Part shown: piece by piece, positions 1-64,000 of the stretch
Numbering within the stretch: the first letter of the stretch is position 1
Layout: every line of letters starts with the position of its first letter
NCBI RefSeq assembly: GCF_028641065.1
Contig: NC_073395.1
Span: 34,038,001-34,102,000 of the forward strand
Length of the DNA: 64,000 bases
Reading direction: 5' to 3'
Source: Leucoraja erinacea
Taxonomy: Eukaryota
Notes under the pieces: generated by a model
The model's input: only the letters and a program-made list of their open reading frames with translations
What the model was told of the DNA's origin: nothing
Database searches by the model: none
Program-made: the position numbers and the translations under genes

Positions 1-144
1 TATTTGAAAACAGATGGCAAGAATGATCTATAAATAAATTGATCAACCCAGGTAGTTTAGGGCAACACCATAAAAATACATACCCATCTTTCAGAAATGA
101 TTACTAAAATGAGGTACACATTAGTTATGCATAGCTATTCAAAG
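1..144. repeat. Direct repeat, copy A of the sequence at 63857-64000 (putative segmental duplication unit)
   Basis: Ungapped alignment of 1-144 with 63857-64000 shows 6 mismatches in 144 bp. Both copies run to the window edges. Confidence 0.95.
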
Positions 145-399
145 TGTTCTTTGTGGGTTTCAGATTGACCTGGTAAACAATTAATTGCAATAACAAGTTA
201 AATTAAATATCAAGTTTTCTTTTAAAAGGTATAATAGTTTGAAAAAGTTAAATAGATTTACTGAAATGAAATCTAATACAGTAAGTAATCCCTCGTAGTC
301 ACGGGCCATGATGCCCAATATTGCTGATTGTCCTGTTATAAAGGAGTGAGATATTATCATTGTATGCAGTGAAAATTGCAGACAGGTTAATACACAAAC

Positions 400-510
400 G
401 GACACAAAGTGCTGGAGTAACTCAGTGGGTCAGGCAGCATCTCTGGAGAACATGAGTTGGACCCTTCACACCGAGTCAGTTTTCTGAGTTACTCCAGCAC
501 CCCGTGTCGT
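400..510. mobile_element. Degenerate short palindromic Penelope-derived repeat
   Basis: gtgctggagtaactcag...ctgagttactccagcac arms; same family as the copies at 2810 and 3790. Confidence 0.7.
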
Positions 511-939
511 TTCACCTTAAAACTTGGTGCTGGTCTGCACCAGTGAGCGTTTCTTCACTGGTTCATGCGGCTTATGTTTCAGCCCCTGGAGACAATTTGT
601 TGCAATTCTGTTGCAATAATTAGCAGTCCCACTTTCAAATAATGTATACTGTAGCTTAGTGTTAGGAGAAGCAATACTGCTGCATGCAAGAATTGGTTGG
701 ACAGCAGTTCTTCCTGCTATCCATTAAACTGCTTTGCAACATGCCTTGTGCTACAAACATTACAATAATTCCTCTCACCCTTAAAATAAATGGAAGCTAA
801 TGACTACGTCAGAACATTTATATCAACTAATATATTCTCACAATAATTGAATACATTGGGCGCTGCACGATGGCAGCCTCGCCAACGGTGTCTGCTTTTT
901 TTGTTCTTTTTAATGTGTTTTAAAAATGTGTTAATGTCT

Positions 940-1382
940 CCACTCCTTCTCCCCCCACCTCCTTTAAAAGATTTACCGTACACTGGGCCAGCCATCTTTA
1001 ACCTTCCTGAACATCGCGGCTATCACCTTGGCTTTGCACCGTCTGAATTTCAGACAGAGCTCCCCCGCTTTCCCTGGCCCTCGCCTTTTAGTGTGTGTGT
1101 GTGTGTGTGTGTGTGCGCGTGTGTGTGTCTCTCGCTCTTTCTGTGTCTCTCTCTGTCTCCGTCTGTGTGTCTCTCTCTGTCTGTGTCTCTCTCTCTGTCT
1201 GTGTCTCTCTCTCTCTGTCTCTCCCTCTGTCTCTCTGTGTGCCTCTCTGTGTCTCTCCGTCCCTCGCCTTTTAGGTAGGTGGTGGGGTGTCTGTACGTGC
1301 GCGTATCTGACGGTCCATCCATCTCGTGGTTTGTCAGGTCGCAGACAGTTTGCTGAAAAGTCGCGTAAGTGGGACAGGCCCT
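940..1382 (+). mobile_element. Non-autonomous Harbinger/PIF-like DNA element, right part
   Basis: Ends in AAGTGGGACAGGCCCT followed by TAA. Its internal sequence matches the opposite-orientation copy starting at 17898. Confidence 0.6.
1091..1262. repeat. (GT)n/(CT)n compound microsatellite
   Basis: Directly visible dinucleotide runs. Confidence 0.95.
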
Positions 1383-1942
1383 TAAAACTGCACTTGTCTC
1401 AACGTAATTTGAACATTGTAGATATACCCAGCATCCTGAGCTCTTGGGGAAAAACACCCCAGCCCATGCAATATTTCCTTACAACTTAATCCCTCCAGTT
1501 CTAGTAACCCTCCAGTGTGAAACTTTTCCCAACCCTTTCCAGCTTAATGACATCCTTTTAGCTCAGTGACTGGAATTGCACATACTTTTCAATGTGCTAA
1601 TTCAAGCATCTGACCGTGCTGTTGTGTGACTGTTTGAAAACCATTAAAATAGCCTCCATTAAGAATTAAGAGTAAATAGCCCCCATTAAGAGTCCCTATT
1701 CTTTTACGGATATTTACAGAAATTGAATAGCTACTTAGTCAACAATTGGATAGGAGCACATTCTGTTAACTTGAGAAAGCTTCCAAATCAAGCACTAAGT
1801 GGCTACAGAAAGAAAATGTTCATAAAAATATGTTTTTGGTACTGAACCACACTTCTAATGAAAAAAAGTCATTATCAACAGTCCTTATAAAGTTAAAAAG
1901 TCTTTATGTAACCCCAATAAAATGATTTAGTCGAGTACTTAC

Positions 1943-2048
1943 AAACCCGAACAGAAGATACAAATTAAGAGGATGCTGATGTCTGTAGATTGCCAGAGCA
2001 ATTATGAGACCCAGAGATCCTAAAGCCGTTACCAACACCAAGGCAGGA
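1943..2048 (-). pseudogene. TMBIM4: TMBIM4 (GAAP/LFG4) exon 3; intact 106-bp exon of a disrupted copy
   Basis: Reads (S)[35 protein letters not shown], like vertebrate TMBIM4 ([34 protein letters not shown]). AG acceptor and GTAAGT donor are present. Confidence 0.9.
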
Positions 2049-2138
2049 CTAGAATCGAGACAAGACAATAGATTAGCAAGTAATACAAAATATACTTTCA
2101 AATTAAATTTGATATTATTTTAGTGAATGATTAAAAAA

Positions 2139-2960: not shown

Positions 2961-3532
2961 TCCTACACAGCAACGCCTGTCTGTGGGTAAAGGCGAGGCG
3001 GCGGGGAGAGAGAAACTCGCCACCCCGTTTCCGCAAGAACTCCCCGGCGCTGGGACAATTCCCCCTTCTCCCCCCCATCCCACACCCCGGACTGGAGAGG
3101 GGGACTGGGGGACATTGCCCGCCTCTGCAACAAAATGTGCAAACCCCGGCACTCCCCGCGGAAGGTGATACTAAACACATCTGCGAGCAAAACACAAACA
3201 CGCACGTCTATCCTCCCCGCCCCACATCCGGTCCAGTCTCCCCACTGTCTCCCACTCGCATCTGCCCCCTCTATCTCTCACTGTTGCACCCCGCTTTCCT
3301 GGCACCCCCGTTTGCTTCCCCCCCCCCCCCCCCCCCCCCCCCAAATGACCTTCGACAAATGCCATGATTCCTTGCATTTTCGGAATACTGAACTCGCTTA
3401 CTCAATTAACTTTATTTACTGCAGTGTGAATGGTAACATCAAATCTCACATTAAGTGAAAATAAAAAAGGCAAGGAGAGGTAAATCAGAAATTGTAAAAG
3501 GAGAACTGAGTGGTGCATATTAGCAATAACAG

Positions 3533-3567
3533 AACAGATTAGATGCTGTAAACCTTGCGCAGAAATC
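3533..3567 (-). pseudogene. TMBIM4: TMBIM4 exon 2, 5' part, with a premature stop
   Basis: ttttcttctgatag|GA TTT CTG CGC AAG GTT TAC AGC ATC TAA = (G)FLRKVYSI*, matching the conserved FLRKVYSIL. Confidence 0.85.
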
Positions 3568-4045: not shown

Positions 4046-4116
4046 CCAAGCGGATGTCCACGCTGGTGCCGTAGTTGAAGTCATATTCGATGGAGGAAGC
4101 AACGGTACGGTTCCAT
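4046..4116 (-). pseudogene. TMBIM4: TMBIM4 exon 1, frameshifted and internally deleted
   Basis: The ATG at 4116 is 19 nt before SSIEYDFNYGTSVDIRL(G), so it is out of frame and gives MEPYRCFLHRI*. The ASAxV segment of NYGSSVASATVHIR is missing. GTAAGA donor present. Confidence 0.88.
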
Positions 4117-4124
4117 GTCCGGCT

Positions 4125-5983: not shown

Positions 5984-6182
5984 ATGGCTGCTCAAGCTCG
6001 CTCATGTATCACAGTTGAGGGTTACATCGAACCACGAAAAGACAAAGAGTCGGAGGAAGATTCGGACAGCGAGGAGAACCAGGAACCCGAGGAAGATTTG
6101 CAGTTCCTCGACCTCAACGACATGATAAATGTTTCCCTCGGTGCCAACTCTGTCAACGCCTCTTCTGTGGTCGGGCGGTTCG
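5984..6182 (+). CDS. HELB: DNA helicase B, exon 1
   Basis: ATG with an acidic N-terminus (EEDSDSEENQEPEEDLQFLD) like HELB, and a phase-1 GT donor that fits exon 2. Confidence 0.8.
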
Positions 6183-7057
6183 GTAAAATATTGATACTTA
6201 ACTTACATTTAGTTTACTGCTGAAGTGCATTTTTCAAGAGCAGGAGCTTTTTAATTTGCAATTGTTAGTATTTCCACTGATAATAGTAGTTGTTGGATCG
6301 GCCCGGCAATTGGAGGCTTTGCCCAACGGCTCCGCGTTTAGTCATGTTTGTGTGGAGTTTGGATGTTCTCAAGAGTCCAGGGTGAAGAGTGTCTAATTGT
6401 CCTGCAATGGAGCAATGAAATTCTTACTTGCAGCAGGACACTAAAACATTAAATATAGTACTCTGTAAAAACCATCATGAACAACAAGAGTTCAGTGTAT
6501 ATAGTGCCAACGCACTATTATATATTTATATATATATATAATAGTGCTTTGGCGGATGAGACAATAGTCGATTTTCCAAACGAGTTTTATTAACAAAACG
6601 ATGAAATCAACGAAGTGACTCAACACAGCCAACACACACATTTAGCACAACGGTGATCCAGAACGACTGAAGGGGCATCGCCCAGAAAGCGCGCGAAAAA
6701 CAAACCTTCCCCAGATCTGGTCACATGTCTGAGGCACCCGTTCGATTACCTTCAGGCACCAGCAGGTGCCGCTGCAGTGCAAAGATAAAAACTGCCCACT
6801 AGTCTGTGTAGTTCTGAGCAAAGATCTTATAGCAGAGCAAGATGCGCCACTCTGCGAAAAAAGCGTAGTATGACATGACGCCATTTTATTGAGCTGCAAT
6901 TTACAATAATATTAATAAAATTTACAATAATATTAACTAAATATATGAAGTGATTGATTATATATAACACACTTTTCCCTACAATACTGATTACACCAAA
7001 GATGATAGAGTGGATCAATCTTTGGAACGGATTACACCAAAGATACTAGAGGAGCAT

Positions 7058-7233
7058 TGCCCGCTGCCTCGGGAGTTCATGCCATCAGGACGCAAGCAAC
7101 CCAGGCGGAATATGAGGTGCTGTTCCTCCAATTTCCGGTGTTGCTCACTCTGGCAATGGAGGAGACCCAGGACAGAGAGGTCGGATTGGGAACGGGAGGG
7201 GGAGTTGAAGTGCTGAGCCACCGGGAGTTCAGG
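7058..7233 (-). mobile_element. Inverted partial copy (pLTR) of the adjacent Penelope-like element
   Basis: Reverse complement of ~7960-8110 (AQHFNSPS.SQSDLSVLGLLHCQSEQHRKLEEQHLIF). Confidence 0.9.
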
Positions 7234-7254
7234 TGACTGACTGACTGACTGACA

Positions 7255-8222
7255 GGTGACAAACCAACTGACTCACATGGCTATCTGGACTACACATCTT
7301 CCAACCCTGCCCCTTGTAAAGACTCCATCCCCTACTCCCAATTCCTCCGCCTACGCCACATCTGCTCTGAGGATGAGACGTTGCACACCAGGACATCTGA
7401 AATGTCCTCGTTCTTCAGGGAACGGGGATTCCCCTCCGCCACCATAGATGAGGCTCGCACCAGGGTCTCATCCATACCCCGCAACACTGCTCTCTCTCCC
7501 CATCCCCGCACTCGCAACAAGGGCAGAGTCCCCTTAGTCCTCACCTTTTACCCCACCAGCCGGCAAATACAACAAATAATCCTCCGCCATTTCCGCCACC
7601 TCCAACGTGACCCCACCACTCGCCACATCTTCCCATCTCCCCCTATGCCTGCCTTCCGCAAAGACCGCTCCCTCCGCAACTCCCTTGTCAATTCTTCCCT
7701 TCCCTCCCGTACCACCCCCTCCCCGGGCACTTTCCGTTGCAACCGCAAGAAATGCAACACCTGTCCCTTCACCTCCCCCCTCGACTCCATTCAAGGACCC
7801 AAGCAGTCGTTCCAGGTGCGACAAAGGTTCACCTGTATCTCCTCCAACCTCATCTACTGCATCCGCTGCTCTAGATGTCAGCTGATTTACATCGGTGAGA
7901 CTAAGCGGAGGTTGGGCGATCGTTTCGCCGAACACCTCCGCTCAGTCCGCAATAACCTACCTGAACTCCCGGTGGCTCAGCACTTCAACTCCCCCTCCCA
8001 TTCCCAATCCGACCTCTCTGTCCTGGGTCTCCTCCATTGCCAGAGTGAGCAACACCGGAAATTGGAGGAACAGCACCTCATATTCTGCCTGGGTTGCTTG
8101 CGTCCTGATGGCACGAACGTTGAATTCTCCCAGTTTTGCTAGCCCTTGCTCTCCTCGGGCTCCTCCTCCTCCCTTTTTCCTTCCTTCTCCCCCCCACCCC
8201 CCATCAGTCTGAAGAAGGGTTT
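7255..8222 (+). mobile_element. Penelope-like retroelement, 5'-truncated, with GIY-YIG endonuclease (ORF 7381-8142)
   Basis: Contains CxxxxCxxC, NLIYCIRC..C..IYIGETKRRL..RF.EH and VAQHFN. The 3' end carries ctgaagaaggg. Confidence 0.92.
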
Positions 8223-11200
8223 TAAAAAGACAAAAAAGATAGAAAAAGGAAGAAACAAAATCCCCCTAAACTAAAGATAAAAACAAAGGCAAAAAATAAA
8301 TAAATAAAAACAAATCAAAACAGAATCTGAACTGAGAATTTCAACAATTTTAGTCTGTTTGTCGTCAAGTCTGTTCCACTGTATAGAGGTAAAATAGTTT
8401 TTATAACAGTTAGAGAGGGAGCAATTTATGTTGTGTGAAAGTGTTGAATACATTTTCCCCAAGTCTTATCAAATTTAACCAAGGGTTCAATAATGTCACT
8501 TCTGAATTTTTTTTTCTAAATTTAAACATGATATAGTTTCAGAGTACCACTGGAGTGTTGACGGAGGGTTGGAGTCTTTCCATTTAAATAAAATAGATCT
8601 TCTGGCGATTAGTGTGGTAAAGGCAATCAACCGATGGGCGGAGCAGAACAAATGAATAAAATCTATCATTGGTAGCCCAAAAACTGCAGTAATAGGATGA
8701 GGTTGTAAATCTATACCTAAGACTACAGAAATAGTATCAAATATGTATTTCCAATATTTTTTCAAAAGTGGGCAGGACAAAAACATATGGGTCAGCGAGG
8801 CCACTTCAGAGTTACATCTGTCACAGGTAGAATTTATATGACCATAGAAATGAGCTAACTTATCTTTTGACATATGAACTATGTGAACCACCTTGAATTG
8901 TATCAGAGCGTGTCTTGCACACATTGAAGAGGTATTGACTAATTGTAGAATCCTATCCCATTTCTCTATAGATAAAGACATTTGGAGTTCTATTTCCCAG
9001 TCATTCTTAATTTTATCAATTATATCTATTTGTACTTTCAAAATCAACTCGTAAATAGTCATTATTAATCCTTTCTGATAAGGGTTCAAATGTAAAAATG
9101 TTTCCAAATTTTCAGTTTGATGTGGTAGCGGAAAAAATGGTAGCCTTAAAAAAATGTCTAATTTGTAAATATCTAAAAAAGTGTGAATTAGGTAAATTAT
9201 ATTTATTGGACAGTTCTTCGAAAGACATAAAACAACCCTCCAAAAACAAATCATGAAAAGCTACTAATCCCTTCCTCTTCCATAACAAAGAGACTTGATC
9301 AGTACTAGATGGTTGGAAGAGAAAATTGGATAAGATAGGACTCGATAAGATAAAATCATTTAGTCCAAAAAACTTACAAAATTGAAACCATATTCGAAAC
9401 GTATGTCTTATTATTGGGTTAGTCGTATATTTATTCAATCTCGTAATTGTAAAAGGCAACGAGGTCCCTAGAATAGAAGCCAATGATAGCCCTTGTAAGG
9501 AATCACGTTCAAGGTTTATCTATCCTGGGCATTGGGTATCTTCTGCCATATATATGAAGACATTTTGGAATCTATAATATCAAAGCAAGATTTGGCAATA
9601 AAAATTGGTATCATCTGAAATAAATACAGAAATGTATGTAAAATGAACATTTTAATAGCATTGATTCGGCAAATTAAAGATAAGGACATTGGTGACCATT
9701 TAGTAAACTGTTGCTTAATATGGTCAAATAAAGGCATAAAATTAACTTTAAATAAATCCTTGTGTTTCTTGGTGATCTTAATACCTAGATAAGTAAAACA
9801 TTCAGTTAGATAAGTAAAACAGTCAATCTAAGTGGAAACTGTCCATAATTCGAAACTAGATTATTTAATGGAAAAAGCTCACTCTTACTAAGATTTAGTT
9901 TATAACCAGAAAAACGACAAAATTGATTAAGTATTGCTACTATTGCCGGAATAGGTTTCTCAGGGTTAGAAATGAACAATAACAGATCATCTGTATAAAG
10001 AGATAGCTTATGTATCTTATTCCCGTGGACAATACTAAAAATATTAGGGGATTCCCTAATAGCGGTGGCCAAAGGTTCCAAAGCAATATCAAATAGTAAA
10101 GGACTTAAGGGACAGCCCTGTCTAGTACCTCAAAAGAGCCTGAAAAAAGGGTATCTCTGGTTATTAGTAAGTACAGAAGCCTGAGGTATATGATATATCA
10201 GCTTGATCCAAGAAATACATTTTGGACCAATCTTAAATTTTTCAAGTGTATTGAATAAGTATTCCCAAGCTACTCTATCAAACGCCTTCAAATGAAATGA
10301 CACATTCTGGGGTTTTATTTGACGCTGTATATACAATATTCATTAATCTCCTAACGTTAAAGTATAAGTAACGATTTTTAATAAAACTTGTCTGATCTTC
10401 AGAGATAAATTGCGGTAAAATATTTTCCAATCTCATAGCTAATATTTTGGAAATAATTTTGAAATCTACATTTAACAGTGACATAGATGTCACTTCAGTA
10501 GGGTCTTTATCTTTTTTAAGGATTAAAGAAATAGATGCTTCATAAAAAGATTGTGGTAATCTATTCCTTAAAAAGGCTTCTTTAAATACCTTGCAAAGCC
10601 AGGGAGACAATAAATTTGAATAATACTTTAAAAATTCTACTGTAAACCCATCTAAACCGGGAGCTTTACCAAAATTCATTGAAATAATTGCTTTCTGTAT
10701 TTCTTCTTCCGTGATGGGTTAATTTGATTTGAAAATTTTTGATTTGATTTGATTTGAAAAATTTATTGTCATTCAAACCTAGGTTTGAACGAAATAATCT
10801 AACAACAGATACTCATTATATGGTAAATTTGGTAAGTTCCGTTTCTTTAAAAACTCATGCATTATATTGGGATCAGTAGGAAATTCTGATTGGTATAGGG
10901 AGGTATAAAATTCCTGAAAGGATTTATTAATTTCATCATGGTCTACAGTTAGTGTACCATCCCGTTTACTCACTTTAGTAATCTGACGGTTAGCCGTCAC
11001 CACTTTCAACTGATTAGCGAGTAATTTACCAGATTTTTCGCCGTGTTTATAAAATTAACTTTTGGTTTTAAGTAGCTGGTTCTCAATCGGTGATTCTAAT
11101 AACAAATCATTATCTCAATTGAAGTTCAACTCTATTCTTAAAGAGCTCTAAACTAGGAGCTTTTGAATATTTTTTATCAATTACTCGTCAGCCAATGTAC

Positions 11201-12070
11201 GTATTTCTTTTTGAGTTTGTTTTTTTAATCCCGCGGAGTATGAAATAATTTGTCCATGAATATATGCCTTAAAAGCATCCCGGACTATACCATTGGATAT
11301 GTCTTCAGTAGAGTTTGTCAAGAAGCAAAAAGCAATCTGATCTTTAATATAATTAATAAAATGTAAGTCTTGATGCAAAGTAGCATCAAATCGCCATTGT
11401 TTAGCACTAAGCTTGGAATCAGGAAGTTTGATTGATAGTTTCAATGTTGCATGATCAGAAATAGCAATTGCATCATACTCACATGCAGTGACCGATGAAA
11501 CTAGCCGAGAATCTATTATAAAGTAGTCAATCCTATAAAAAATATGATATACATGAGAGGAAAAAGAAAATTCTTTGTCATTTGGGTGTAAGAATCTCCA
11601 AACTTCTAACATTTCAGAGTCAAGTAAAAAAGAATTAATAAAACTAGCTGATTTATTTGGAAGCACATGATCGGATGTAGATCTGTCAATCAAGGGTTTC
11701 AGACAGTTGAAATCTCCACCCATTATTAAAAAGTGTTCATTTAAATTAGGAAAGGATGCAATTAACTGTTTAAAAAACCTCAGGGTGATCAATATTTGGT
11801 GCGTAAACATTCACCATAGCAACCTTTTGCTTATAAAGAATCACCAAAAATCTGCCATATGGATCAGAAATTGGTTCATAATGAACAAACAGAATTGAGG
11901 AATAAAAATAGAGACTCCTTTCAACTTAGCCTGTGAATTTGAATGAAACTGCTGTCCTCTCCAAAACTTGAAAAATCGTTGATTGTCATCTTACCTTACA
12001 TGAGTTTCCTGAACAAAGATAATCTGAGCATTTAGTCTGCGAAGAACTTTAAACATTTTTTTCCTCTGGG
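8223..12070 (-). mobile_element. L1/Tx1-clade LINE, ORF2 decayed
   Basis: APE endonuclease (IIFVQETH, GGDFN, RIDYF, SDH), RT (KAPGLDGF, KAFD, LYTDD), C-terminal CxxC..H..C, and T-rich 3' UTR. Many stops and frameshifts. Confidence 0.9.
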
Positions 12071-13400
12071 ATTTTTTTGTGTCTTCCCTAATGAAGACAG
12101 ATCCGAAGTACCTGTTCAACTCTTCTGCCATTTCCTTGTTCCCCATAATAATTTCACCCGTGTCTGCCTTCAAGGGACCCACATTTGACTTTGCTACTCT
12201 TTTTCCCTTAACATATCTAAAGAAGCTTTTACTGTCCTTCTTTATATTCCTGGCTAGCTTCCCTTCGTACGTCATCTTTTCAGCCCGTATTGCCCGTTTT
12301 TGTTTCCTTCTGTTGTCCTTTGAAAGTTTCCCAATCCTCCGGCTTCCGGGTACTCTTGGCTGTGTTATACATCTTTTGAATTAGTTTTATTCTATCCGTA
12401 ACTTCTCTTGTCAGCCACTGTTGCCTCCTACTCCCCTTAGAATCTTTCTTCCTTTTTGGAATGAAATGATCCTGTGTCTTCCGGATTATGCCCAGAAATT
12501 CCTGCCATTGCTGTTCCACCGTCATTCCTGCTAGTATCCCTTTCCAGTCTACCTTGGCCAGCTCCTCTCTCATGCCTTCAAAATCCCCTTTGTTCAGCTG
12601 CCTACCTGCCACTTCCGATTTAACCTTCTTCTCAAATTGCAGATTAAAACTAATCATATTATGATCACTACCTCCAAGCGGTTCCTTTACCTCTTATCAA
12701 ATTTGGTTAATTGAACAACACTAAATCCAGAATTGCCTTTGGTCGGCTCCATTACAAGCTGCTCTAAGAATTCATCTCGGAGGCATTCTACAAACTCTCT
12801 TTCTTGGGGGTCCTGAACCAACCTGATTTTCCCAGTCTACCTGCATATTGAAATCCTCCATCACCATAGTGGCATTACCTTTGTTACATGCCAGTTTTAA
12901 CTCCTGCTGCAACTTACACCCTACACCCGGGCTACTATTTGGGCGTCTGTTGATAACACCAATTAGTGTCTTCTTGCCTTTGCAATTCCTCAACTCAACC
13001 ACAGTGACTTTACCTCGTCAGTCCATTCCTCACCAGAAGAGCTAACCCCACCCCCTCCTCTGCCTACCTCCCTGTCCTTTCTATAGGATGTATAGCACTG
13101 AATATTAAGTTCCCTGACCTGATTCTCCTGCAGCCACGTCTCGGAAATCCCCTCAACGTCATATCTACCAACCTCTAACTGAGCCTGAAGCTCATCTACT
13201 TTACTTCTTATACTTCGCGCATTCAAATACAGTACAGTTAATTCCTTACGCATCTCACCATTCACATTGATCCCTACTACACGCGGCCATACTCTCCTAT
13301 CCCCTTGTGAGCTTTATTTCCTGTTATTTCTGGGGTCAATAACTATCCCTTTACTCCCTTTCCCTTTAACTCCGTCCTTGACTATCCCATTTGACACGAT
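12071..13400 (-). mobile_element. CR1 LINE fragment (endonuclease region), 3' half missing
   Basis: LYLNARSIRSK, ISETWL, DFN, SDH; same subfamily as 26878-29985 and 46815-49540. Confidence 0.9.
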
Positions 13401-13511
13401 TGGAGGAGGGATTTGTAGGTCAGAGGCGGAAGTAGGGGGGTGAGACAGAAGATAGAGTGCGGTGATTGGAGGAGGGAGACGTCCTATGGAGCAAAGATCA
13501 TAGAACGGAGC

Positions 13512-13715
13512 TTGAATCGGCCGGTTCGTGGGGCCTTTCATCGCCTGGCGCGGCTTAAAATCGGCTGTGGGATCTTCCACCGCCCCGTGGTCACATTGCT
13601 GCATCACGGCGATCGAGGCTTCCATTGTTGAAGACTCCGCCGGGCGATGGAAAATCCCGCGGCCGGTTTTAAGCCGTGCCAGGCGATGAAAAGCCCTGCG
13701 AACGGGCCGATTGAA
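13512..13715. repeat. GC-rich inverted repeat with ~75-bp arms
   Basis: 13512-13585 is an imperfect reverse complement of 13641-13715. Confidence 0.8.
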
Positions 13716-13824
13716 GCCCCACGATTCGGGGCGGACAAAGTTGCTGTTGCTGGAGTTCAGAGATGGTCACCAACCAGGTCAGTTGCCGATGTGATTGTCC
13801 ACAGGGCCCACGACCGAAGCCGTG

Positions 13825-51040: not shown

Positions 51041-52028
51041 ATTATCAGAATGCTGCTTGGATTAAAGGGTATTTGCTATGAGGAGAGATTGGACAAACAT
51101 CGAGTGTTTTCTCTGGAGTGTCAGAGGTTGACAGGAGAACTGGCAGAAGCATATGAAATAATCAGCCATAGAAAGGGTGGACAGTTGGAAGCATTTTCCC
51201 CCATCGTACCCTCTACTCTTGAGGGTATAAGTTTAAGGTGAAAGGGGCAAAGTTTAAAGCAGTGCAGGTTACGTTTTTTTTATTCATACAGAGCATGGTG
51301 GGTGCCTGGAACTCGCTACCATGGAGGATGATGGAGACAGATATGATAGAGCATTTAAGAGGCTTTTAGATAGGCACATGGATATTAATCACTGGAAGGA
51401 CATGTATCACATGCATGTAGAGGAGATTAGTATAACTTGATATCGTGTTTGATAGGACATTGTGGGTTTAAGGGCCTGGTCCTGTGCTGTACTATTCTAA
51501 GTGAGATATCCCTGGCATGTCCATATGTAATAGCATTAAAATAAGGAGTTGGCCTTCAACCAAATTGTGAAGATTTATTTGGTATCGTAAACCTTTGAAA
51601 TTTTATACCCAAGAATGCTGCGATTACTTAATTGCAGGATATATTCCAAAATTTGACAGCATTTTGGTGTCAAGGAATATGGGATTAGTAACTGCCTTAA
51701 GTTTTACATGTATAGAGTTCCTACCACCTCTTACCACTCACATGGTTCTATTCTGATTATGAGAATTTGGGTGTTACTGCATTTTTTTTCAAGTTTGCAT
51801 CACATATAAATCACATAGTACCTTGTCATCACCCTGTATATTATCATGACAGCATCTGTGTTGTGCTTAAAAACAAAAGTTCTCTGGTGTCGTACTTTAT
51901 GCTGTCAATGGTGATCCTGATGCAGCAATATCTTACTAAGATATGTTGTGCACTATTGTTACATTATTCTGTTCAAAATGGGAAACACTATACTGATTAA
52001 AGTCGTACAAATTTAATTTGTTTTTCAG

Positions 52029-52198
52029 AGATCATAAAAAAAGGCTTGATTTCCGGGTTGGTGACAAAGTGTGCTGCACTAGGAATGCTTATGTCGAGGA
52101 TTTTACTGAAATGTCAAAAACAGAGTCTGAGACTGATTCAAAGGGGATGAAGGAAAACTATCGCTTATGTAATGGAGAAATCTTTTTTTATCACGGAG
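52029..52198 (+). CDS. HELB: HELB exon 10, containing a +1 frameshift
   Basis: FRVGDKVCCTRNAY...RLCNGEIFF. The T7 run at 52183-52189 shifts the expected IFFITE| out of phase with exon 11. Confidence 0.93.
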
Positions 52199-54527
52199 GT
52201 AAAACTTTGATCTTTTTGTAAAAAATAAAAGGTATCTTAACATCAACATTCTTTATTGGAACAAAGTCAAATGCCTAAAATAACCATATAACATATAACA
52301 ATTACAGCACGGAAACAGGCCATCTCGGCGCTACAAGTCCGTGCCGAACAATTATTTTCCCTTAGTCCCACCTGCCTGCACTCATACCATAACCCTCCAT
52401 TCCCTTCTCATCCATATGCCTATCTAATTTATTTTTAAATGATACCAACGAACCCGCCTCCACCACTTCCACTGGAAGCTCATTTCACACCGCTACCACT
52501 CTCTGAGTAAAGAAGTTCCCCCTCATGTTACCCCTAAACATCTGTCCCTTAATTCTGAAGTCGTGTCCTCTTGTTTGAGATGAATTGGAATCAAACATTC
52601 CCTTTGGTGTGTAGACTTAACTACTTGAAATTATACTTACAATTAGTCAGATCTGAATTATCAACATGTTCTAAATTAACAGTACTTACTGCATATCCTC
52701 AGTTGCCCTTGCTGGGCTATTCCCATAATTATATGAACTCTTGCAACAGTAAACTTTCAAGTGAGTGCTGGAAGCTCTAGGATTTTGTCATTTTTTTCAT
52801 TCTTTTTTAGTAAAAAATATGGCATCTGCTCTCAATGTGGAGGATAGCCCAGGTGTCTCTTTTTCACAAACTGCGAAATAAATCCAATCTGACTCATTAC
52901 AGCTTCATCAGTCAACTCTTTATCGGCAGCATTGACAATACTATTGAGTCGCACTATACTGAGCCCTGCACCTGATCATTAATGCACAGTTTAGGTTTTA
53001 GTGCTTATCATGTCCATGGTTCAAACAATTGAATTCCAGAAGTGAGAGTGAGTCCCCTTGATAGCAGCACTCTCACTCAACTTGCACTAAGTTGCACTCA
53101 ACTTATTTAATTGAGTGCAGCATCAAGAAGACATATGGACTTCAACAGAAAAACACTCCGCTGCTTGGAGTCACATGTGGCACAAAGGAAGATGGTTGTG
53201 ATTTTCGTAGACAATGCAAGAGTTTCTCATGCCCTGCACACAAGAATTGTCAACTATTTCATAAATTATCTTATTTTCATCATAAAACCAGATATAGGGA
53301 CATTCACATGACGTTCAATTACATTCTAAATTGAGCAGAGGGTGAAACAGTGTACGCCGAGTTCAGCAAGATCTAAACAACATTCAGGCATGGTGTGATA
53401 AATGAGGAAAATAACATTCATGCCATGAGTGAGAAAGTTCAAAGATTTAAAAGTTACAAAATGGATTCAGCTGTAGAATTAGCAATAAAGAAATGCCTTC
53501 ACCTTTCTTCTATTACACTAGCAAGGCTAACAAAGATGTTTTCGCCATTCTTCCTAACACGAGCGAGATAACAGCACAACTTCATGGGTGTTTTCCTTTA
53601 TTTATAAACATCAGAAGAATGTTCAGACAACGGTTCTTTCCCTCTGCTCTACTGATTACAATGTCCAAACAATCAATAAACAAGGTCAAAAAATCAAATG
53701 CTTGATCTGCAGAAAAATAGCTTCTGTAGCATAACCATATATGGGCTAACCTTTCCTCTCTCGGAAGAACCTGTCAATCTTAACAAGCAAGAGGCTGTAC
53801 AATGCTCTGTAGATAAAATATTGCTGAATCTCTGATTATTGGGTTATAAATATATCTGATTGAACATTACCAATTTGTGTGGGGATAGAGTGACACTGTA
53901 TAGTCTGTATCTACATACTGTCAGAGTGACAGACACACGTGCCTGGCAAAATAAAGAAGTTACTATTTAATTACTAATTTCATTGCGTTTGTGTTTGTTT
54001 AAAATGAAACAAACTTTAACATGAGTAGCAGGCAATGATCACCTCCAACAAAACATTATCTAACCACTTATCCTAAAAATTCAATATCATTACCATCATT
54101 CAGTTCTCTACCACCGTACTCTAGGAGAGGGTCATGATTGATCAGAAACTCAACTGATGCAGCTAGTTATATGCAGTGACTATGAAAGCTTGTGGGAAAC
54201 TTGGTTTCCTGCTGTGAATGGCTCATTTCTCAACACTTAGAAGCCTTGCAATGATCTACAAGGCACATCTCCTGCCTGGATGAGTGCAGATCTATAATGA
54301 TACAAGCAGGTATCGAGGATTTGGATCAATGATGAAGTAACATTTCAAGTGTACAAAGAAACTAAATTTATTAAAGTATAGTGAATTGAACTAAAAGAAT
54401 TAGTAAAAGATTAAATGTCACATGCCGCTGTCTGTGTGCTCCATGGGTCCTCGCCAATATGAGCGGCGTCTGGTAGCAACACGTCGTATGCCTTTCTTCT
54501 GTACGCTGGAGGCTTTTTAACAGCGGC

Positions 54528-54612
54528 CTGAAGAGGGTTCTAACCTGAAACGTCACCTATCCATGCCTTTCTGATTTCCTGCCTGACCTGCTGAGTTACA
54601 TCAGCACTTTGA
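54528..54612 (+). ncRNA. Hammerhead-like core in a Penelope-derived repeat
   Basis: CUGAAGA-GGGU(UCUA)ACCU-GAAA-CG-UC at 54528-54554; no convincing helix I. Confidence 0.45.
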
Positions 54613-55490
54613 TTTTAAATTAAATGGTTCTTTGGATTTTGACAACATTGCCTTAGCATATTGCCATAAAAATGTCTTTTGTGAAGAAATAATTGACCAA
54701 TGCTAGATTTACCATTCATTAATTTGAGTTCTGTCTCACAAAACAGTCCCCTTTTCCCCAACTTGTCCATGCTGACCAAGATCTGTGCTAACCCCATTGC
54801 CTGTGTTTGTCCCAAATCCCTCTAAAGCTGTTCTATCCATTCCAAGAGGGTTTAAAAAAATGCTGTTGTTGTATCAACCTCTATCCCTGCCTCCTTCTTC
54901 TTCATCTTTCGCATGGACGTCGAGTTGATTGCATTAGTCGAAACAGGGCGGACCACGTGAAGGTTGCAATCTTCCACCCTACCTGCCTCTAACAGCTTGT
55001 TTCATTTACACAGCACTCTCCATATAAAACCATGCCCCTCAATTTGGCCTTAAATCTTTTCCCTCTCACCTTAAAACTCTGCCCATCAGTTTTAGACTCC
55101 TGGGTGGACTGTGACTATTTACTCTATTGATGCCCCTCTAAATTTTATAATTATCTGTGAGGTCATCTCTCGGCATCCTTTTGCACTAGGAAACCAGTCC
55201 TAGCTATGGGGTGTTTCCTTAAAACTCAAGCCCTCCAATCCAGGCAACATACCTGTGAATCTTTTCTGCACCCTCTATAGCTGTATCTTATTATTTCTGT
55301 GGCGATCAGATGTGTACAATACTCCAAGTGTGGACTCACTAATGTTTCATACAATTGTAACATGATGTCCGGACTCCGATAGTCAATCCCATGTGGATGA
55401 AGACAAGCATACGGTACGCCACCTTCACCAAATATTTTTGTGCTTGTGTGGATTGAAGGTCTTGTAAAGCTTTTTTTGTTTGGCTTGCAG

Positions 55491-55637
55491 GATAAAATTA
55501 TACGAACCAATACATCTACTACACGTTACTTGTTACTGGATGACAAGGAAAATAAGCAGATTTTGGTGAATTTTGAAGAATTAAGGAAGAAATGCAAGTT
55601 GGCACATGCATGGGCCAGAACAATACACACCTTTCAG
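55491..55637 (+). CDS. HELB: HELB exon 11 (motif V)
   Basis: CKLAHAWARTIHTFQ; phase 0-0. Confidence 0.96.
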
Positions 55638-55735
55638 GTATGAGACGTAGTACTGAATAACTTAATAAATGAAATTGAACAATGAACTGCACGTAGCCTC
55701 TGAAGAGTTGTATGGAACCGATTGGCTATTGAAGG

Positions 55736-57476
55736 TGTAGCGGCACCAAACGTTGTCAGGAAAAGGCCAGACGTAAGGCAGGTTCAAACAGTAGTTTTAT
55801 TCAGGTGTTACATGTTTGTTTGGTCCGCTAACGTAATTCAATTTTGTCATTGCTGCTGTAGCTGAGCGAGGGGGTTCCCTCAAGCTCAGCTACCTGTTGA
55901 CTGGGGTGATCTCAAGGTGAGATAAGCTTATGTAGCAGGACACTACCCCTAACCCATGATGTCACGTGCCAGCCTGCGTAGCTACTGACGAGGGTTCGAC
56001 CATCAGTGGTCTGTGTATCAGCTGACGTCACAGGACCCCCCCCCCCCCGCCCGCCGGAACTAAAAGGAGGAATAGAATGGTCGAGGGCGGCTCCTGCATG
56101 TGAGTCGGGGACACCCCGGGCGTGGGTCGGGATGGAGGCCCACGGGTTCAGTCGACGCTCCAGCTGTGGGCGATCCCGAGGTATGCCGAGGGGTGCGAGG
56201 AGACCGATGCAAAAGCCACCGGACGGCAGATACACAGTCGCATCTCCTCGACCACCAAAGGGATCGTGTCCTGAGAAATACGGCCCCCAGCAATGGCTGG
56301 GAAACGTCGGCAACAATGAAGAAAAAACAAAGTGAAAAGAAACAAAACAAACTAAAGTGAGCAATCACGTGCAAAATGGTAGGTAAGTTCAAATTGTCCA
56401 GTGTCCATGGTGCAGGATGGGAAGCTGTGCTGGAAAACCAAAGGTTGAAGTGACATCCTCCGACCTGAATGAGGCGCTGTTGCCGGTGGTCAGGCTGCAG
56501 GGACGGCATCCTGCAGGATGGTGGCGCTGTGGACAGCGATCAGGGAAGGTCGAGCATCTCTTCCGGCCGGCCGCGGCAGCCATTTTTGTAGTCGGGCAGC
56601 CACTTGTTTAAGGAGGCCACTTGTTTCAGGAGGCCATTTTGCCGACCGGCTGAGGCGGCCTTCAACAGCGATTCAATACCCTGTTGCTGGGCCGGACACG
56701 CAGCCAGTGCCATCTCTGGGGTCCGCGCAGGTGAGGAGCAGAAGGGAGTCTTCGGCAGTCGCCCCAGGTAAGCCCGCCCTATTGGGTGGCTAGGCCCTGG
56801 GCAGCAGCCGGCGGGGAAATGGGCGGGCCCACTCTCTCCTCGCTCCGGGGGCGGTCAGGCGTGCGTCAGTGATGCTGGGGGCAGAAGATTGCTACACTCG
56901 CAGCTCCTGTAACGGCTGGTGGGGAAGCGGCGGCAGCCACAACCTCTCTGCTCCGATGGTCGGATCCACGCAGATCATGTGGGAGAGCTTGGCGGCCGTA
57001 ACACAAGGACTGTCACTGGACCGCGCCACTTGACCTAGGCGGCCTGCGGCATACCTCACTGTAGGGCCGGGTTGGCGGCAGCGTCGTTCTGCAGGGCTGG
57101 GCAGTCGGCTTCAGACATCGGGTCTCCCAAGGCTGCGTGCATCGGGAGAAATCCAAATTTCCAATTTGGATAGTCGAGATCACCAATGTAGCGGCAACAA
57201 ACGTGGTCAGGAAAAGGCCAGACGTCAGGCAGGTTCAAACAGTAGTTTTATTCAGGTGTTACATGTAGGTTTGGTCCACTAACTTAATTGTCATTGCTGC
57301 TGTAGCAGAGCGAGGTTGTTCTCTTGAGCTCAGCTACCTGTTGACTGGGGTGATCTCAAGGTGAGATAAGCTAATGTAGCAGGGCACTCCCCCTAGCCCA
57401 TGACAACATGTGCCAGCCTTCGTAGCTACTGACGAGGGTTCGACCATCAGTGATCTGTGTATCAGCTGATGCCACA
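55736..57476 (-). mobile_element. Internally deleted Gypsy-like LTR retrotransposon
   Basis: TG...CA LTRs at 55736-56032 and 57187-57476, AAGG TSD, PBS TGGTGATCTCGAC, poly-G PPT, and a protease-like remnant FIVADVSQPLLGAVFL. Confidence 0.9.
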
Positions 57477-58082
57477 AAGGCTATGTTTTTGGATACTACT
57501 GTTTGGTCTAATAAGTGTACCTCATCGTTGCATAATGCACCTCCAGAGTACTACCTCATGCTGTGAATTGTTGGAAGATTACGTGTCGCATTAATGGTGA
57601 CGTTAATACAAAATTTTGCCATTGGGAAATGATGCGATTTCTCTATGGAATGCTGAGCAGAAAAAGCTAATGCAGTTCTAAGGATAATTTAACAATCAAA
57701 CATAATTTTCATTGAGGGAATTAAAATATACAATGATAGGAATTTGAGATAAAGAACAATTGCATGAAATGAGAATTGCATTTAATTTGTTTCTTTTTCT
57801 CTCTTGTTTCACAGAGCTGGTAGCTCCCTCTATTCCTCAGTGATCATTCATACATTGAGTGTAGGTTATCAAAGCTGGTGACATTTACAGTTGTGTTTAA
57901 TGGAGAGTGATCAGGAATGGAAGATTACCAGGTTACTATCCCAATTTTTTGAGGGTTCACATTAGTTACAGCCCGAGACTGACGCTTTGGCTGTGCTGCA
58001 CTAACTAAGCATAACTTGGGACCTTAAAGTCTGCCGAATGGGTTTGAAACACTAATGGAAATACAATCCTTTTCTACTTTAG

Positions 58083-58568
58083 GGCTCTGAAGCCGACACG
58101 GTTGTGTATGTTGTGGGACCGGCTGGAAGACAGAACTGGCAGCACATCTATACCGCAGTCACACGAGGGCGCAAACGTGTATATGTTGTTACATCCGAGG
58201 CTCATTTTATTAAAGCAATGAAAGCCCGAGTCACCCCGAGAAACACACGCCTGCGTGAATTCCTGCAGGAGAAACTAGCAAAACCAGGAGCTGCATCATG
58301 CTCTGAAGGATCACAGTTCCAGCAACAGGCAAGTTATTGCTGGTCTTCTAGTGTGGAGCTGGACAACAGAGAATGCAATGGAGCCTGCGTAAGGCCAGAT
58401 GAAGCAGTCAACTCCTTGCCTCATAGTGATGATACATCAACAAGAGAGAGTTTGGTGATGACTACTGATGAAACTGACTCTAAAACAATTGAAGCAAACT
58501 GGTCTCCTGGATGTAAGAGAAGTGATAATACTTCAGCTGGTGAGGGATCGACTGCAAAGTATTCAAAG
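58083..58568 (+). CDS. HELB: HELB exon 12 (motif VI)
   Basis: [35 protein letters not shown]...RNTRL; phase 0-0. Confidence 0.96.
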
Positions 58569-59407
58569 GTAAATAAATTAGCTGTTGGGTGGTCTAAATT
58601 ACTGAAGTATTAACACCAGATCATGTTAACATTTAGTAAGAAACAGCAGTTTGTTGTTCATCCATCACAACAGCACTGCTGATTGCAGCTTTTGGAGAAC
58701 ACAAGTTCATAGGAGTGTGGGTTCTGAGCTTATAACATCCCTGCTTTATATTCCAACTTCTGAGTAGCTGTCATTTATGTTGGTTGGTCCTTCAGAAACA
58801 ATGAGAATGATTTTTTTATCCTATTTAAAAACATCTATTTTTTGTGCCAATCGTGCCACGGGTTATTATTTTAAGGTTGCTTGCTGACCATAACTTTGCT
58901 AAAAACTCATTTCATGAACTTGTGAATGTGCTACCAGTGTTTTATTTTTCCGCCTATTTACATCAATATAACTGAAATGATTCTACATTGGCTACGGTTG
59001 CGCAAGACCTGACAAAATGTGTCATTCGTCTACCCTCCATTTCTATATCCCTTCTTGAATTGAACACCAATCTGCTGCTAAGTATTAATGGGTTAATTCT
59101 GTTTTCTCAGGACTTATTACTGCCATCGATGCCTTTCTAAATTGTGTTTGGTAACCTAAGAAAAAAATGTTCACTGACATATCCTAAAGAAAGTAGAACT
59201 TGAGGATTACTGAAATTCTTGATCTTTACTTCAGTGATACAAGCAACTATTGATTGGAGTTAATAAATGTAGCAAAGTAAATATCTGAGATTGTAATTGG
59301 TGTCCACTGAAAACGGTTGAAACATGACTAGATTTATTTTATGGCATGGTAATTAAAAAATGATAACTTCTTTAAATAAACCACATGTATGTTATTTTAC
59401 TTTGCAG

Positions 59408-59518
59408 ATATTAATGGAATCACCTCTGGGCTGTACAAAGTTTGAAATGACGGTACTTGATAACTCATCACCACCAGTAAATGCGGGTAAAAGGTTGTTT
59501 ACAGAAGAGAACAAATAA
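59408..59518 (+). CDS. HELB: HELB exon 13 (terminal)
   Basis: tttactttgcag acceptor; ILMESPLGCTKFEMTVL...KRLFTEENK*, resembling the SP..F...R/KxLF tail of HELB. Confidence 0.78.
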   Translation: MLMESPLGCTKFEMTVLDNSSPPVNAGKRLFTEENK

Positions 59519-62009: not shown

Positions 62010-62249
62010 CTACAACGTGTTGGTATTTTCTTGGATCTCTGTACTACCAAGCCTTCCTTTCTGTTGCCTATAAGTATGAGCTTCATTCTGCTCATTCCAT
62101 TCTTCTGGTTGTGACGTCTGATCTTCAGAGAGCACCTCCTGGAAGGCTAATGGGTTTCTGCTGATGACCAATTCGAGTTTATTGCCAGAATCTGCAATTA
62201 GTGGCACTACCAGGCAGCAGTCAAAATCTCTGGTACGAATATGATTTAC
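62010..62249 (-). CDS. GRIP1: GRIP1 last coding exon (end of PDZ7)
   Basis: [35 protein letters not shown]...NTL*. Confidence 0.95.
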
Positions 62250-62370
62250 CTGTCACAAGGAAACAAAATAGCCATCAATCCGATTGGAGTCTACTTCCAG
62301 GAAGTATGCTACTGGGTTTGTAGTGATCTTTGATGCAAGAATAAATATACAAGTGTTGATCTCTCTGTAC

Positions 62371-62517
62371 CTGTAATAACCTGTCATAGGGCTGAACACC
62401 ACCAAGGGCAGCTGGTCCATTTGACCGAATGTTGTTGACATACACACCTTTCTCCAGCAGGCCATCTGAAACACTGAATCCAAAATCCTGAATGTCTGAA
62501 TCTTTATATAGTGTTAC
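62371..62517 (-). CDS. GRIP1: GRIP1 penultimate exon (PDZ7)
   Basis: [31 protein letters not shown]...PYDRLLQ; 147 bp, AG/GT. Confidence 0.96.
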
Positions 62518-62899
62518 CTGTGAAATTATGGAGATATTTATTAAAAACATTCGAAGTTGGTCCACCATCACTGTCCTCAAGCAGACAACTGCAGTACCTA
62601 GTGCATTGTTACCATATGCCACATGTGTAATGGAAAAATCCAACAACATGTAATTTTACTCTTTTTGGGCCATATCTGATAATCACACATTCGCGATTAA
62701 AAATAAATTACAACACCATTGTAAAGCTTGTGGACTGTAAGCTGGAGGACAAAAAACCACAGAATTTTGCTAATCTAATCACTTCCTGAAATTCATCAAA
62801 GGGAAAATTACATTTGCAACAAATCCAGTTTCTATCCTAAAACAAATCAGAATTGGGAAGGAAACATGACCAGAATAAATATTTTATGGAATCTGAAAC

Positions 62900-63136
62900 C
62901 TTGTGCAACTCCACTGGTGTTGGTGACATAATCTCTTTCATTTCCTGCTTGATCTTCCTAATAGCAAATGACTTTGATCTCACGCCATCTGACGGTAAAG
63001 TATTACTACGGGCAGCTTGGGTGTAATGTGCCCTGACAGCATTCTTCTCTTGGAAGCTTGATTGCCTTCCCAGTGGCCTATGTGCCGGGCTGCTTTCATC
63101 ATTCAGACACAAGGTGCTTCCCGACATGATTGTTGC
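62900..63136 (-). CDS. GRIP1: GRIP1 third-from-last exon
   Basis: ATIMSGST...LGRQSSFQE...RSNTLPSD...[17 protein letters not shown]; phase 0-0. Confidence 0.95.
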
Positions 63137-63856
63137 CTGTTGGATGAGATAACAAAAGCTGTAAAATGTTGTGCTCCAGAAAATAGTGGAAAGGCAATTC
63201 TGTTAGTGAAGATGGATAAGACTCGCAAACACTAAAATGTTAGTAGTTGACAACTAATGTTTGCCATTAAAATTAGTTAAATAATACACATGTAGATTTG
63301 TTAGTATGGTTTAACTCAGATTGTATTTCCTGTTAAATATCAAACAGCTAATTGTCTGGTTTTAACAGGAAGTCTTTAATGTATCAGACTGTTAGATCTT
63401 GAATTATTGCTTCACACCAACTCTAAAATTAAAAAAATACCAATATAGCCAAGTTTTGCAAATTCAGATCCGTTTGGTTGGCGGCCTTCATTAACGAGGA
63501 GCTAGGTTCCTGTAATTATTAAGACCAAATGATGCAGGTGAAAGATCAACAGCTGTGTGTGAAATTGTTCTTTTACAACTTTGAAAACCTCTGCTGCAAA
63601 GAGTGAAAACTTCCTACCTCCAATTCCCTCAGGATTCCTGATTGACCACAGGTTTCCAAATCTTCCAAGGCTTGAGACCAAAAATTTTCTTCATGATCTG
63701 TTTCTAGTGCATCGTGTCCACCTGCATAACTGATTTTTTTTTTCAAAAAGGGTATAATTTTAAAGTGTGAATACCTACTATCCCCAAAGCTTTATCAATA
63801 GAAATGGCATTCACCTTTGCCTTAACTATTATAAGTACTGGTTTTGATCTCTGGAC

Positions 63857-64000
63857 TGTTTCAAAACAGTTGGCAAGAATGATCTATAAATAAATTGATC
63901 AACCCAGGTAGTTTAGAGCAACACCATAAAAATACATACCCAACTTTCAGAAATGATTACTAAAATGAGGTACACATTAGTTATGCATAACTATTCAAAG
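63857..64000. repeat. Direct repeat, copy B of 1-144
   Basis: 138/144 identity to the window start. Confidence 0.95.

Follow-up and report, generated by a model that had tools for sequence, protein, structure and literature searches.

Vertebrate HELB, an SF1B, RecD-like 5′–3′ translocase found in a TMBIM4–HELB–GRIP1 neighborhood, is usually a single gene. Tandem segmental duplications are a familiar class of rearrangement in which one gene is copied whole and two neighbors are copied partly, the fragments decay, and mixed sites resembling the outcome of gene conversion appear. According to Hazeslip 2020 (PMC7290933) and PMC9169624, HELB restrains the long-range resection of DNA ends and removes RPA from single-stranded DNA, and its C-terminal domain mediates its exit from the nucleus in S phase. 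Two HELB copies of the thorny skate (Amblyraja radiata) are already present in the NCBI automatic annotation, and our literature search found no paper on a skate HELB duplication. Here we analyzed a window of 64,000 nucleotides from the little skate (Leucoraja erinacea), which contains a decayed 5′ fragment of TMBIM4, a 13-exon HELB and the true 3′ end of GRIP1. We regard an old direct tandem duplication as the likely best explanation of this arrangement. Tandem segmental duplication confined to one lineage, with the flanking genes truncated, is an ordinary mechanism, and nothing in it differs here; the unusual part is the cargo, most likely an extra, shortened copy of a DNA-repair helicase gene.

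Gene content of the window

All three genes were located where a prior sequence-only reading had implied, with TMBIM4 exons 1–3 and the 3′ exons of GRIP1 on the minus strand and HELB on the plus strand (Table 1). That reading had also called the TMBIM4 copy broken, and we found three disabling lesions in it. The 3′ half of exon 2 (residues 42–64 of P0241) scored no better than shuffled sequences within positions 1–3600. A CpG-rich segment that separates exons 2 and 3, and has probably been inserted there, is bounded by arms at 2182–2205 and 3380–3403 that are 96% complementary; its CpG observed/expected ratio is 0.65–0.73, and none of its six ORFs (6/6 scanned) matched Pfam. Disabling lesions amount to 3 per ~296 nt in TMBIM4 vs 1 per 3,078 nt in HELB (p = 0.0025). 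There is a full-length TMBIM4 of 234 aa, P0241, whose exon 3 is identical to this one, and Marletaz 2023 lists an expressed Tmbim4 (baseMean 1497) with a Bax1-I domain (PF01027) on Leri_19C, little skate chromosome 19. A truncated and decaying TMBIM4 copy is therefore accompanied by an expressed gene; the corresponding GRIP1 fragment would be located beyond the window. An in-frame TMBIM4–GRIP1 fusion protein would be excluded by splice phase (phase 0 donor, phase 2 acceptor) together with the upstream lesions.

Table 1. Features located in the 64,000-nt window of Leucoraja erinacea.
Feature	Position	Strand	Remarks
Out-of-place GRIP1 intron sequence	1..144	.	138/144 identical to 63857-64000
Expected GRIP1-intron / TMBIM4-intron-3 junction interval	145..1942	.	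Gap-free (no N before 17970)
SINE-like piece	374-512	.	Inside junction interval
Small repeat element	about 950-1383	.	Inside junction interval
TMBIM4 exon 3, intact	1943..2048	-	106 nt, AG/GT; 36/36 aa identical to P0241
CpG-rich ~1.2 kb segment	2182..3403	.	Between TMBIM4 exons 2 and 3; bounded by 24-nt inverted arms
TMBIM4 exon 2 remnant	3521..3567	-	Stop codon at 3541-3539
TMBIM4 exon 1	4046..4116	-	71 nt, not 85; carries a 15-nt deletion and a +1 frameshift
Head-to-head spacer, TMBIM4 to HELB start codons	4117..5983	.	1,868 bp
HELB copy, 13 exons	5984..59518	+	Matches 'LOW QUALITY' NCBI HELB-like model P0001 (L. erinacea)
HELB exons 1-5	5984-6182, 16936-17298, 18664-18830, 19665-20477, 34787-34967	+	
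HELB exons 6-9	37565-37706, 38369-38508, 39354-39453, 42459-42518	+	
HELB exons 10-13	52029-52198, 55491-55637, 58083-58568, 59408-59518	+	
Assembly gap, HELB intron 2	17970..18099	.	130 N; both flanks match one repeat element in order
T7 run, HELB exon 10	52183..52189	+	Shifts frame
58-codon in-frame deletion site, HELB exon 12	58323..58343	+	ORF continuous in window
Last five GRIP1 coding exons, intact	62010..63729	-	Match full-length L. erinacea GRIP1 P0128
Presumed native 144-bp copy, GRIP1 intron	63857..64000	.	About 130-270 bp from exon starting 63729

The window HELB was identified by sequence and tree as an orthologue of vertebrate HELB. All 12 introns are GT-AG, and the domain set (AAA_30, AAA_19 and UvrD_C_2 in Pfam; RecD matches in PDB) is that of vertebrate HELB. 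Walker A and B are present in P0001, whose motif strings at aa 419, 492, 544, 575, 609, 822 and 850 we take to be helicase motifs I to VI. A putative acidic RPA-binding patch, another feature of vertebrate HELB, lies between Walker A and B where the sequence aligns to primate P0056. The copy differs from vertebrate HELB in being a second one, in lacking 58 aa of the C-terminal localization region, in evolving faster, and in carrying a frameshift as assembled. It had been described as a whole HELB gene; this holds for its 13-exon content, but the assembled reading frame ends at codon 780. The frameshift, the 58-aa deletion and a 130-N gap were all overlooked in that description. A mis-join at the gap was rejected, as the sequences flanking it are co-linear and this HELB copy has diagnostic residues on both sides. 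The spacer between TMBIM4 and HELB is too short for IRAK3.

At the other end, the GRIP1 exons agree with P0128 even at residues that differ in the thorny skate, and they are the end of the working gene. The window is therefore probably the last unit of the duplication, with the junction inside it.

HELB copies in two skates and the origin of the probable duplication

The thorny skate has two HELB-like proteins that are 92% identical (906/984) and are assigned to its GRIP1 chromosome, their contig being equal in length to that which carries GRIP1. The five other same-species pairs that we checked are 97.7–100% identical, i.e., isoforms, and among the matches listed each of 14 other named chondrichthyan species has one HELB cluster. 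Of the 432 matches, the 120 listed include no further HELB protein named as coming from L. erinacea. The window HELB is sister to P0003, one of the thorny skate proteins (935/1020 identical; support 96/96 in one tree and 95/97 in another), and an Amblyraja-only clade was rejected, marginally (AU p = 0.042). The two also have the junction of the 58-aa deletion in common. P0003, annotated by NCBI as 'DNA helicase B-like', is full length, with an unbroken reading frame, and is not flagged as low quality; a 4-aa insertion in exon 8 distinguishes the window copy, as does the T7 run. On these sequence comparisons, the duplication predates the Leucoraja–Amblyraja split. We found no absolute age for it in the consulted passages of PMC8303890 and PMC10115646. 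The duplication accounts for the 'HELB-like' naming of the models in both skates.

The proposal that duplication of a TMBIM4(5′)–HELB–GRIP1(3′) block yielded two HELB genes or more gains support, independently of the 144-bp match, from the two divergent thorny skate proteins, the tree, the shared deletion and the Bax1-I-bearing Tmbim4 on chromosome 19. What changes is the placement of the window, probably the last unit. In the common ancestor of Leucoraja and Amblyraja, a direct tandem duplication whose breaks fell in the third intron of TMBIM4 and in one of the late introns of GRIP1 would have produced an intact TMBIM4, HELB(A) and a GRIP1 3′ fragment, followed by a TMBIM4 5′ fragment, HELB(B) and an intact GRIP1. 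The window would be almost exactly the second of these units, so that its ends overlap by 144 bp. HELB would have been copied whole along with the head-to-head promoter region common to it and TMBIM4, making its expression possible from the start. The TMBIM4 fragment, which bears the promoter, could have spliced into the orphan GRIP1 exon only out of frame, and would then have decayed. HELB(B) would have been retained under purifying selection, evolving about twice as fast and losing 58 aa of its regulatory tail. The gene anatomy, the lesions, the two divergent thorny skate HELBs, the tree and the shared deletion are observed directly; adjacency of the units in tandem is inferred, and so are the position of the breakpoint, the choice of the native 144-bp copy, the common promoter, the argument from fusion phase and the status of the frameshift. 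In a second little skate assembly, three gene IDs lie between tmbim4 (G0010632) and grip1 (G0010636), with irak3 at G0010647; this annotation was lifted from the thorny skate and is therefore not fully independent.

An array of three HELB genes, one of ancestral type and two derived, that arose in two rounds of duplication, so that the unit to the left of the window is not the original gene, is compatible with this duplication and is a possibility that we hold only tentatively. P0004 branches outside (P0002,(window,P0003)) with 100/100 support and keeps 17 ancestral states, yet has five derived states in common with the window HELB; it may, however, be the single gene of another skate. Site patterns are mixed (window with P0003, 11; with P0004, 9; with P0002, 4), which requires gene conversion or further HELB copies. 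The three IDs that separate tmbim4 from grip1 point the same way, as does the name of one model, Helb-3, in the annotation tables consulted, but the '-n' suffix is also given there to apparent fragments (Grip1-2, -3, -4), and only two A. radiata HELB clusters occur among the matches listed. The three IDs had no match in the supplements searched.

Reading frame and tail of the window HELB

The T7 run places a stop at codon 780, ahead of the motif V/VI region (aa 817–863), so that a single open frame through all helicase motifs is absent in HELB as assembled. The coding sequence is 3079 nt; the 775 aa before the frameshift are identical to P0001, and the 250 aa downstream equal its tail. The window copy has evolved faster than P0004 (62:20, p = 4e-6) and Rhinoraja (67:32, p = 6e-4). 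Its 28 specific changes avoid every invariant column (0/28, p = 8e-6; 296 of 863 columns invariant over 14 outgroups), and we therefore read the frameshift either as an error in the assembly or as a loss that happened very recently. The same test was not significant for P0003 (3/19), P0002 (3/9), the window+P0003 stem (2/6) or the three-sequence stem (3/17).

Between the two, we lean toward a homopolymer error in the assembly, which was built as a hybrid from noisy PacBio CLR reads. It was also polished with Illumina reads, by which many such errors should already have been fixed, and this counts against the reading. The same duplication could instead have left a true pseudogene whose real T7 frameshift removes the last helicase motifs, a variant concerning function and not origin, which we consider rather improbable. 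Besides the early stop, NCBI marks P0001 as low quality, the copy evolves at a raised rate and lacks a conserved tail motif, and the consulted part of the Marletaz data gives Helb-3 only UvrD_C_2, consistent with a model split at the T7 point. Against this, the T7 run is the sole HELB lesion and lies inside a homopolymer, there is no nonsense codon in 3 kb, all introns keep their splice sites, invariant sites are spared, and P0003, its orthologue in the thorny skate, is complete and bears no flag. For skate genomics, the analysis points to a probable error of one base in the assembly of little skate HELB.

A complete C-terminal localization domain is absent from the window HELB. The 58-aa deletion takes most of a motif, DLxFAQxYSWSP, that all 16 other named chondrichthyan HELB proteins keep and that is otherwise retained in sharks, rays and chimaera as well as in sturgeon, gar and carp. 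The deletion spares the invariant KR, along with SP and LF at the distal positions. The motif is not pan-vertebrate: its strict pattern occurs in 19 of 92 HELB tails, nearly all from fishes. We found no description of it in the sections of PMC7290933 and PMC9169624 consulted. In a low-confidence alignment, the deleted stretch corresponds to primate residues from the S967-equivalent SPRK onward, but the idea that the deletion removes the human CDK2 export site was dropped, since neither Rhinoraja nor Pristis conserves that site. A paralogue that is retained but naturally lacks part of its tail draws attention to this short motif, and the skate paralogues are a ready protein pair for testing the role of the tail. 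It is conceivable, though doubtful, that a second HELB, perhaps a third, still works in little and thorny skates, escapes part of the normal cell-cycle or degradation control of HELB and serves as a specialized resection brake or RPA-clearing motor; if so, it would be a natural split of HELB functions.

The terminal match and the putative junction interval

The reported identity of the window ends was reproduced by blastn: bases 1–144 equal 63857–64000 in direct orientation at unit distance (offset 63,856), with 6/144 mismatches (at positions 2, 6, 14, 61, 87 and 134), no gaps and an E value of 1.6e-61. This offset ranks first of 990 terminal-overlap offsets (identity 0.958; runner-up 0.48), and the homology within the window comprises 144 bp only, with a GC content of 31%. 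About 130 bp separate the right-hand copy from a GRIP1 exon; its counterpart at base 1 is therefore probably the tail of the preceding unit. This GRIP1-intron-like sequence and TMBIM4 exon 3 share one gap-free stretch. We scanned for the breakpoint by comparing TMBIM4 exons 4–7, the missing half of exon 2 and two upstream GRIP1 segments with positions 1–2060 and 2061–3600. In 16 tests with 100 shuffles each, only the exon 3 control clearly beat all shuffles; one further test reached 2/100, which we treated as chance. Neither TMBIM4 exons 4–7 nor upstream GRIP1 exons rose above the shuffled background in 145–1942, but the absence of exons 4–7 from 1.9 kb proves little, as they could sit just left of the window.

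It is improbable that the 144-bp sequence is a dispersed low- or mid-copy repeat standing at both ends by chance, with HELB duplicated in another unit with other boundaries. About 64% of the skate genome is repeats according to the consulted part of Yoo 2022, and 16.8 kb of the window is covered by self-matches. Within the 64 kb, however, no third copy was found at word size 7 (nothing better than E 0.007), one copy adjoins a GRIP1 splice acceptor, the other has the truncated TMBIM4 beside it, and the match extends to each edge of the window, which is what a long duplication would give. The E 0.007 match is a 16-nt self-palindrome. No Rfam family matched anywhere in the window.

Very unlikely is a false duplication, in which the assembly would have placed both alleles of a single locus next to each other: heterozygosity is 1.6% in this CLR hybrid assembly, so that a 6/144 difference (4.2%) is just weakly above the allelic level (p = 0.029), the window contains a 130-N gap, and false duplications are common in vertebrate assemblies according to Rhie 2021, but there is no N in 1–17969, the gap flanks are co-linear, and a false duplicate would not be decayed as this TMBIM4 fragment is. 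In the separately assembled thorny skate, moreover, the HELB copies are 92% identical while GRIP1 differs by just 0.6% between the two species, both of which carry the 58-aa deletion.

Terminal match and probable junction

The sequence-only reading took the window to be one unit of a tandemly duplicated TMBIM4(5')-HELB-GRIP1(3') block, starting from an AT-rich match between its two ends. The match is real: the 144-mers align without gaps and show 6 mismatches in 144 positions (E = 1.6e-61), exactly as claimed, and have a GC content of 31%. It was the best of 990 end-overlap offsets, with an identity of 0.958 vs 0.48 for the next best. No third copy occurred within the 64-kb window, and no Rfam family matched the 144-mer.

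Features of the window, from left to right
Feature	Position	Strand	Remarks
First 144-mer	1-144
Intron-like DNA, probable junction interval	145-1942		1.8 kb
TMBIM4 exons 3, 2, 1		minus
CpG-rich segment in TMBIM4 fragment	2182-3403		1.2 kb; 24-nt inverted ends; no Pfam match; possibly a non-autonomous DNA element or inversion
Direct repeat where TMBIM4 exon 2 similarity ends	3506-3535 / 3639-3668		30 bp (93%); possible insertion templated by intron 1
Stop in TMBIM4 exon 2	3541-3539	minus
Head-to-head TMBIM4/HELB spacer	4117-5983		1,868 bp; no IRAK3 found
HELB exons 1-13	5984-59518	plus
Penelope-like piece	7075-8139		297-aa GIY-YIG ORF; 160-bp inverted repeat (98% identity)
Long LINE, HELB intron 1	8300-15000	minus
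Second LINE family, within the former	12065-13397
DIRS-like retroelement, HELB intron 4	20999-25853		reverse transcriptase fragments; split inverted ends; broken by stops
HELB exon 8	39354-39453		4-aa insertion unique to this copy; tandem AG acceptor explains 1-aa difference among models
GC- and CpG-rich island, HELB intron 9	42945-43830		several open frames; no Pfam match
T7 run in HELB	52183-52189
LTR-like direct repeats, HELB intron 11	55736-56032 / 57187-57476		297 bp (89%); GC-rich 1.2-kb core between; no Pfam match in 5 ORFs scanned
GRIP1, last five coding exons	right of HELB	minus
Alternatively spliced GRIP1 exon	63441-63509		23 aa; in models P0128 and P0127, skipped in P0121
Second 144-mer	63857-64000		within 270 bp of GRIP1 intron at the right end

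The last GRIP1 exon in the window is 100% identical to the GRIP1 models of L. erinacea and Amblyraja radiata (thorny skate), and across five exons the window shows L. erinacea residues where both species differ. These five exons match the full-length GRIP1 model, so that the window most likely continues, at its right end, into the working gene. The right-hand 144-mer would then be native and the one at base 1 would be where an adjacent unit ends, which would place the junction between the first 144-mer and the TMBIM4 fragment; a search of that interval placed no breakpoint. One 144-mer does thus appear out of context, as proposed, and it would be the one at base 1; the unit geometry was amended, with the junction inside the window and the window as probably the last unit, its GRIP1 end most likely being that of the working gene. 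If TMBIM4 exon 3 were spliced to GRIP1 over the junction, the reading frame would be lost (phase 0 joined to phase 2).

Against P0241, a full-length TMBIM4 of 234 aa, exon 3 is perfect (36/36 aa), exon 1 measures 71 nt vs 85 expected through a 15-nt deletion plus a +1 shift, and exon 2 carries a stop. The 3' half of exon 2 was not found in the window, and exons 4-7 are absent from it, only 1.9 kb being there to hold them. TMBIM4 is thus broken, as had been noted, and the simplest reading is an extra, dead copy. In the human gene order IRAK3 lies between TMBIM4 and HELB, unlike in the window. In the annotation of Yoo 2022 (PMC9605692), lifted for little skate from thorny skate, tmbim4 and grip1 lie four IDs apart and irak3 elsewhere, the 'irak3' ID being beyond dyrk2 and grouping with Irak4 in the orthologue table; the three genes between tmbim4 and grip1 are without names in eight of its supplementary files. 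Entries in Marletaz 2023 (PMC10115646) include a Tmbim4 with a Bax1-I domain (baseMean 1497) anchored at 33.98-33.99 Mb of Leri_19C, which also carries Llph and a Cand1, and a 'Helb-3', such suffixes also marking apparent fragments.

Allelic pair or old duplication

False duplications are a common assembly error (Rhie 2021, PMC8081667), and this assembly was built with PacBio CLR reads, polished with Illumina data and purged of haplotigs. Two alleles assembled side by side would be only mildly unlikely from the 144-mer alone, as 6/144 mismatches give p = 0.029 at the 1.6% heterozygosity of little skate. However, the junction interval is gap-free, the flanks of the window's single gap are co-linear, lesions are concentrated in TMBIM4 (3 in ~296 nt vs 1 in 3,078 nt of HELB, p = 0.0025), and another species, the thorny skate, has an orthologous HELB duplicate.

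The HELB survey listed 120 of 432 matches, grouped into clusters at 90% identity, a cutoff that might conceal recent copies. Among the matches listed, A. radiata has two HELB-like entries, P0002 and P0003 (906/984 identical), both on a contig of 47.69 Mb, as is its GRIP1; five other same-species pairs are isoforms (97.7-100% identical), and 14 other named chondrichthyan species have one cluster each. The window HELB is sister to P0003 (96/96 in a tree of 16 rows, 95/97 in one of 9), and forcing the thorny skate proteins together was rejected only marginally (AU p = 0.042). The two sisters also have in common a 58-aa deletion with an identical junction, inside one exon in the window. Sister placement and deletion together indicate that the copies split before the two genera, which belong to one tribe, Amblyrajini (PMC8303890), and the split was probably later than the divergence from Rhinoraja. 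Site patterns conflict: the three pairings among the window, P0003, P0002 and P0004 (a further HELB protein) are favoured by 11, 9 and 4 sites, so that gene conversion or a third copy is needed.

Judged from sequence, the proposed duplication appears largely right, given the decayed TMBIM4 and the orthologous thorny skate duplicate, and likewise its being old and common to both skate lineages; its mechanism would be textbook. The literature searched gave no date for it and, with subscription literature thinly covered, no paper on HELB duplication in sharks or on HELB in skates. Among the matches listed, none dealt with fish HELB paralogues as judged from its title or the opening of its abstract, none retrieved with cartilaginous-fish terms mentioned HELB, and HELB paralogue and positive-selection searches gave nothing relevant. 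The duplication seems undescribed, though visible in automatic annotation.

HELB reading frame, tail and introns

A whole HELB had been claimed; exons 1-13 are indeed present, but the frame is broken as assembled and the tail lacks 58 aa. The largest exon is 100% identical to P0001, the NCBI model 'LOW QUALITY PROTEIN: DNA helicase B-like [Leucoraja erinacea]', which is placed on a contig of 41.58 Mb, as are the L. erinacea GRIP1 models; 12/12 introns are GT-AG. The T7 run brings the coding sequence to 3,079 nt, and a stop at codon 780 closes the frame upstream of the UvrD_C_2 region (aa 817-863). No other frameshift or stop was found in the window's HELB, and we consider the run more likely to be an error than to mark a genuine loss of recent date.

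Of 28 substitutions specific to the window, none hits a column invariant in 14 outgroups (34% of columns; p = 8e-6), and the same test was not significant on other skate HELB branches. This lineage evolved about twice as fast as that of Rhinoraja (67:32) and three times as fast as P0004 (62:20), and little and thorny skate diverge by 0.6% in GRIP1 and 8.3% in the window HELB/P0003 pair. We read these substitution patterns as suggesting that the copy has stayed functional while the constraint on it relaxed or shifted.

The deletion takes out most of a tail motif present in 16/16 other named chondrichthyan HELB proteins, which also occurs in sturgeon, gar and carp relatives and not clearly in tetrapods. 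It falls where localisation of human HELB is controlled (PMC7290933); the human CDK2 site is not conserved in rays, so altered HELB regulation is a guess. The C-terminus of thorny skate P0002 is divergent and in part reads the last exon in a different frame, owing either to a faulty model or to a second lesion in the tail.

HELB introns are crowded with pieces that resemble LINE, Penelope and DIRS elements. The second LINE family that interrupts the long intron 1 LINE recurs elsewhere in the window.
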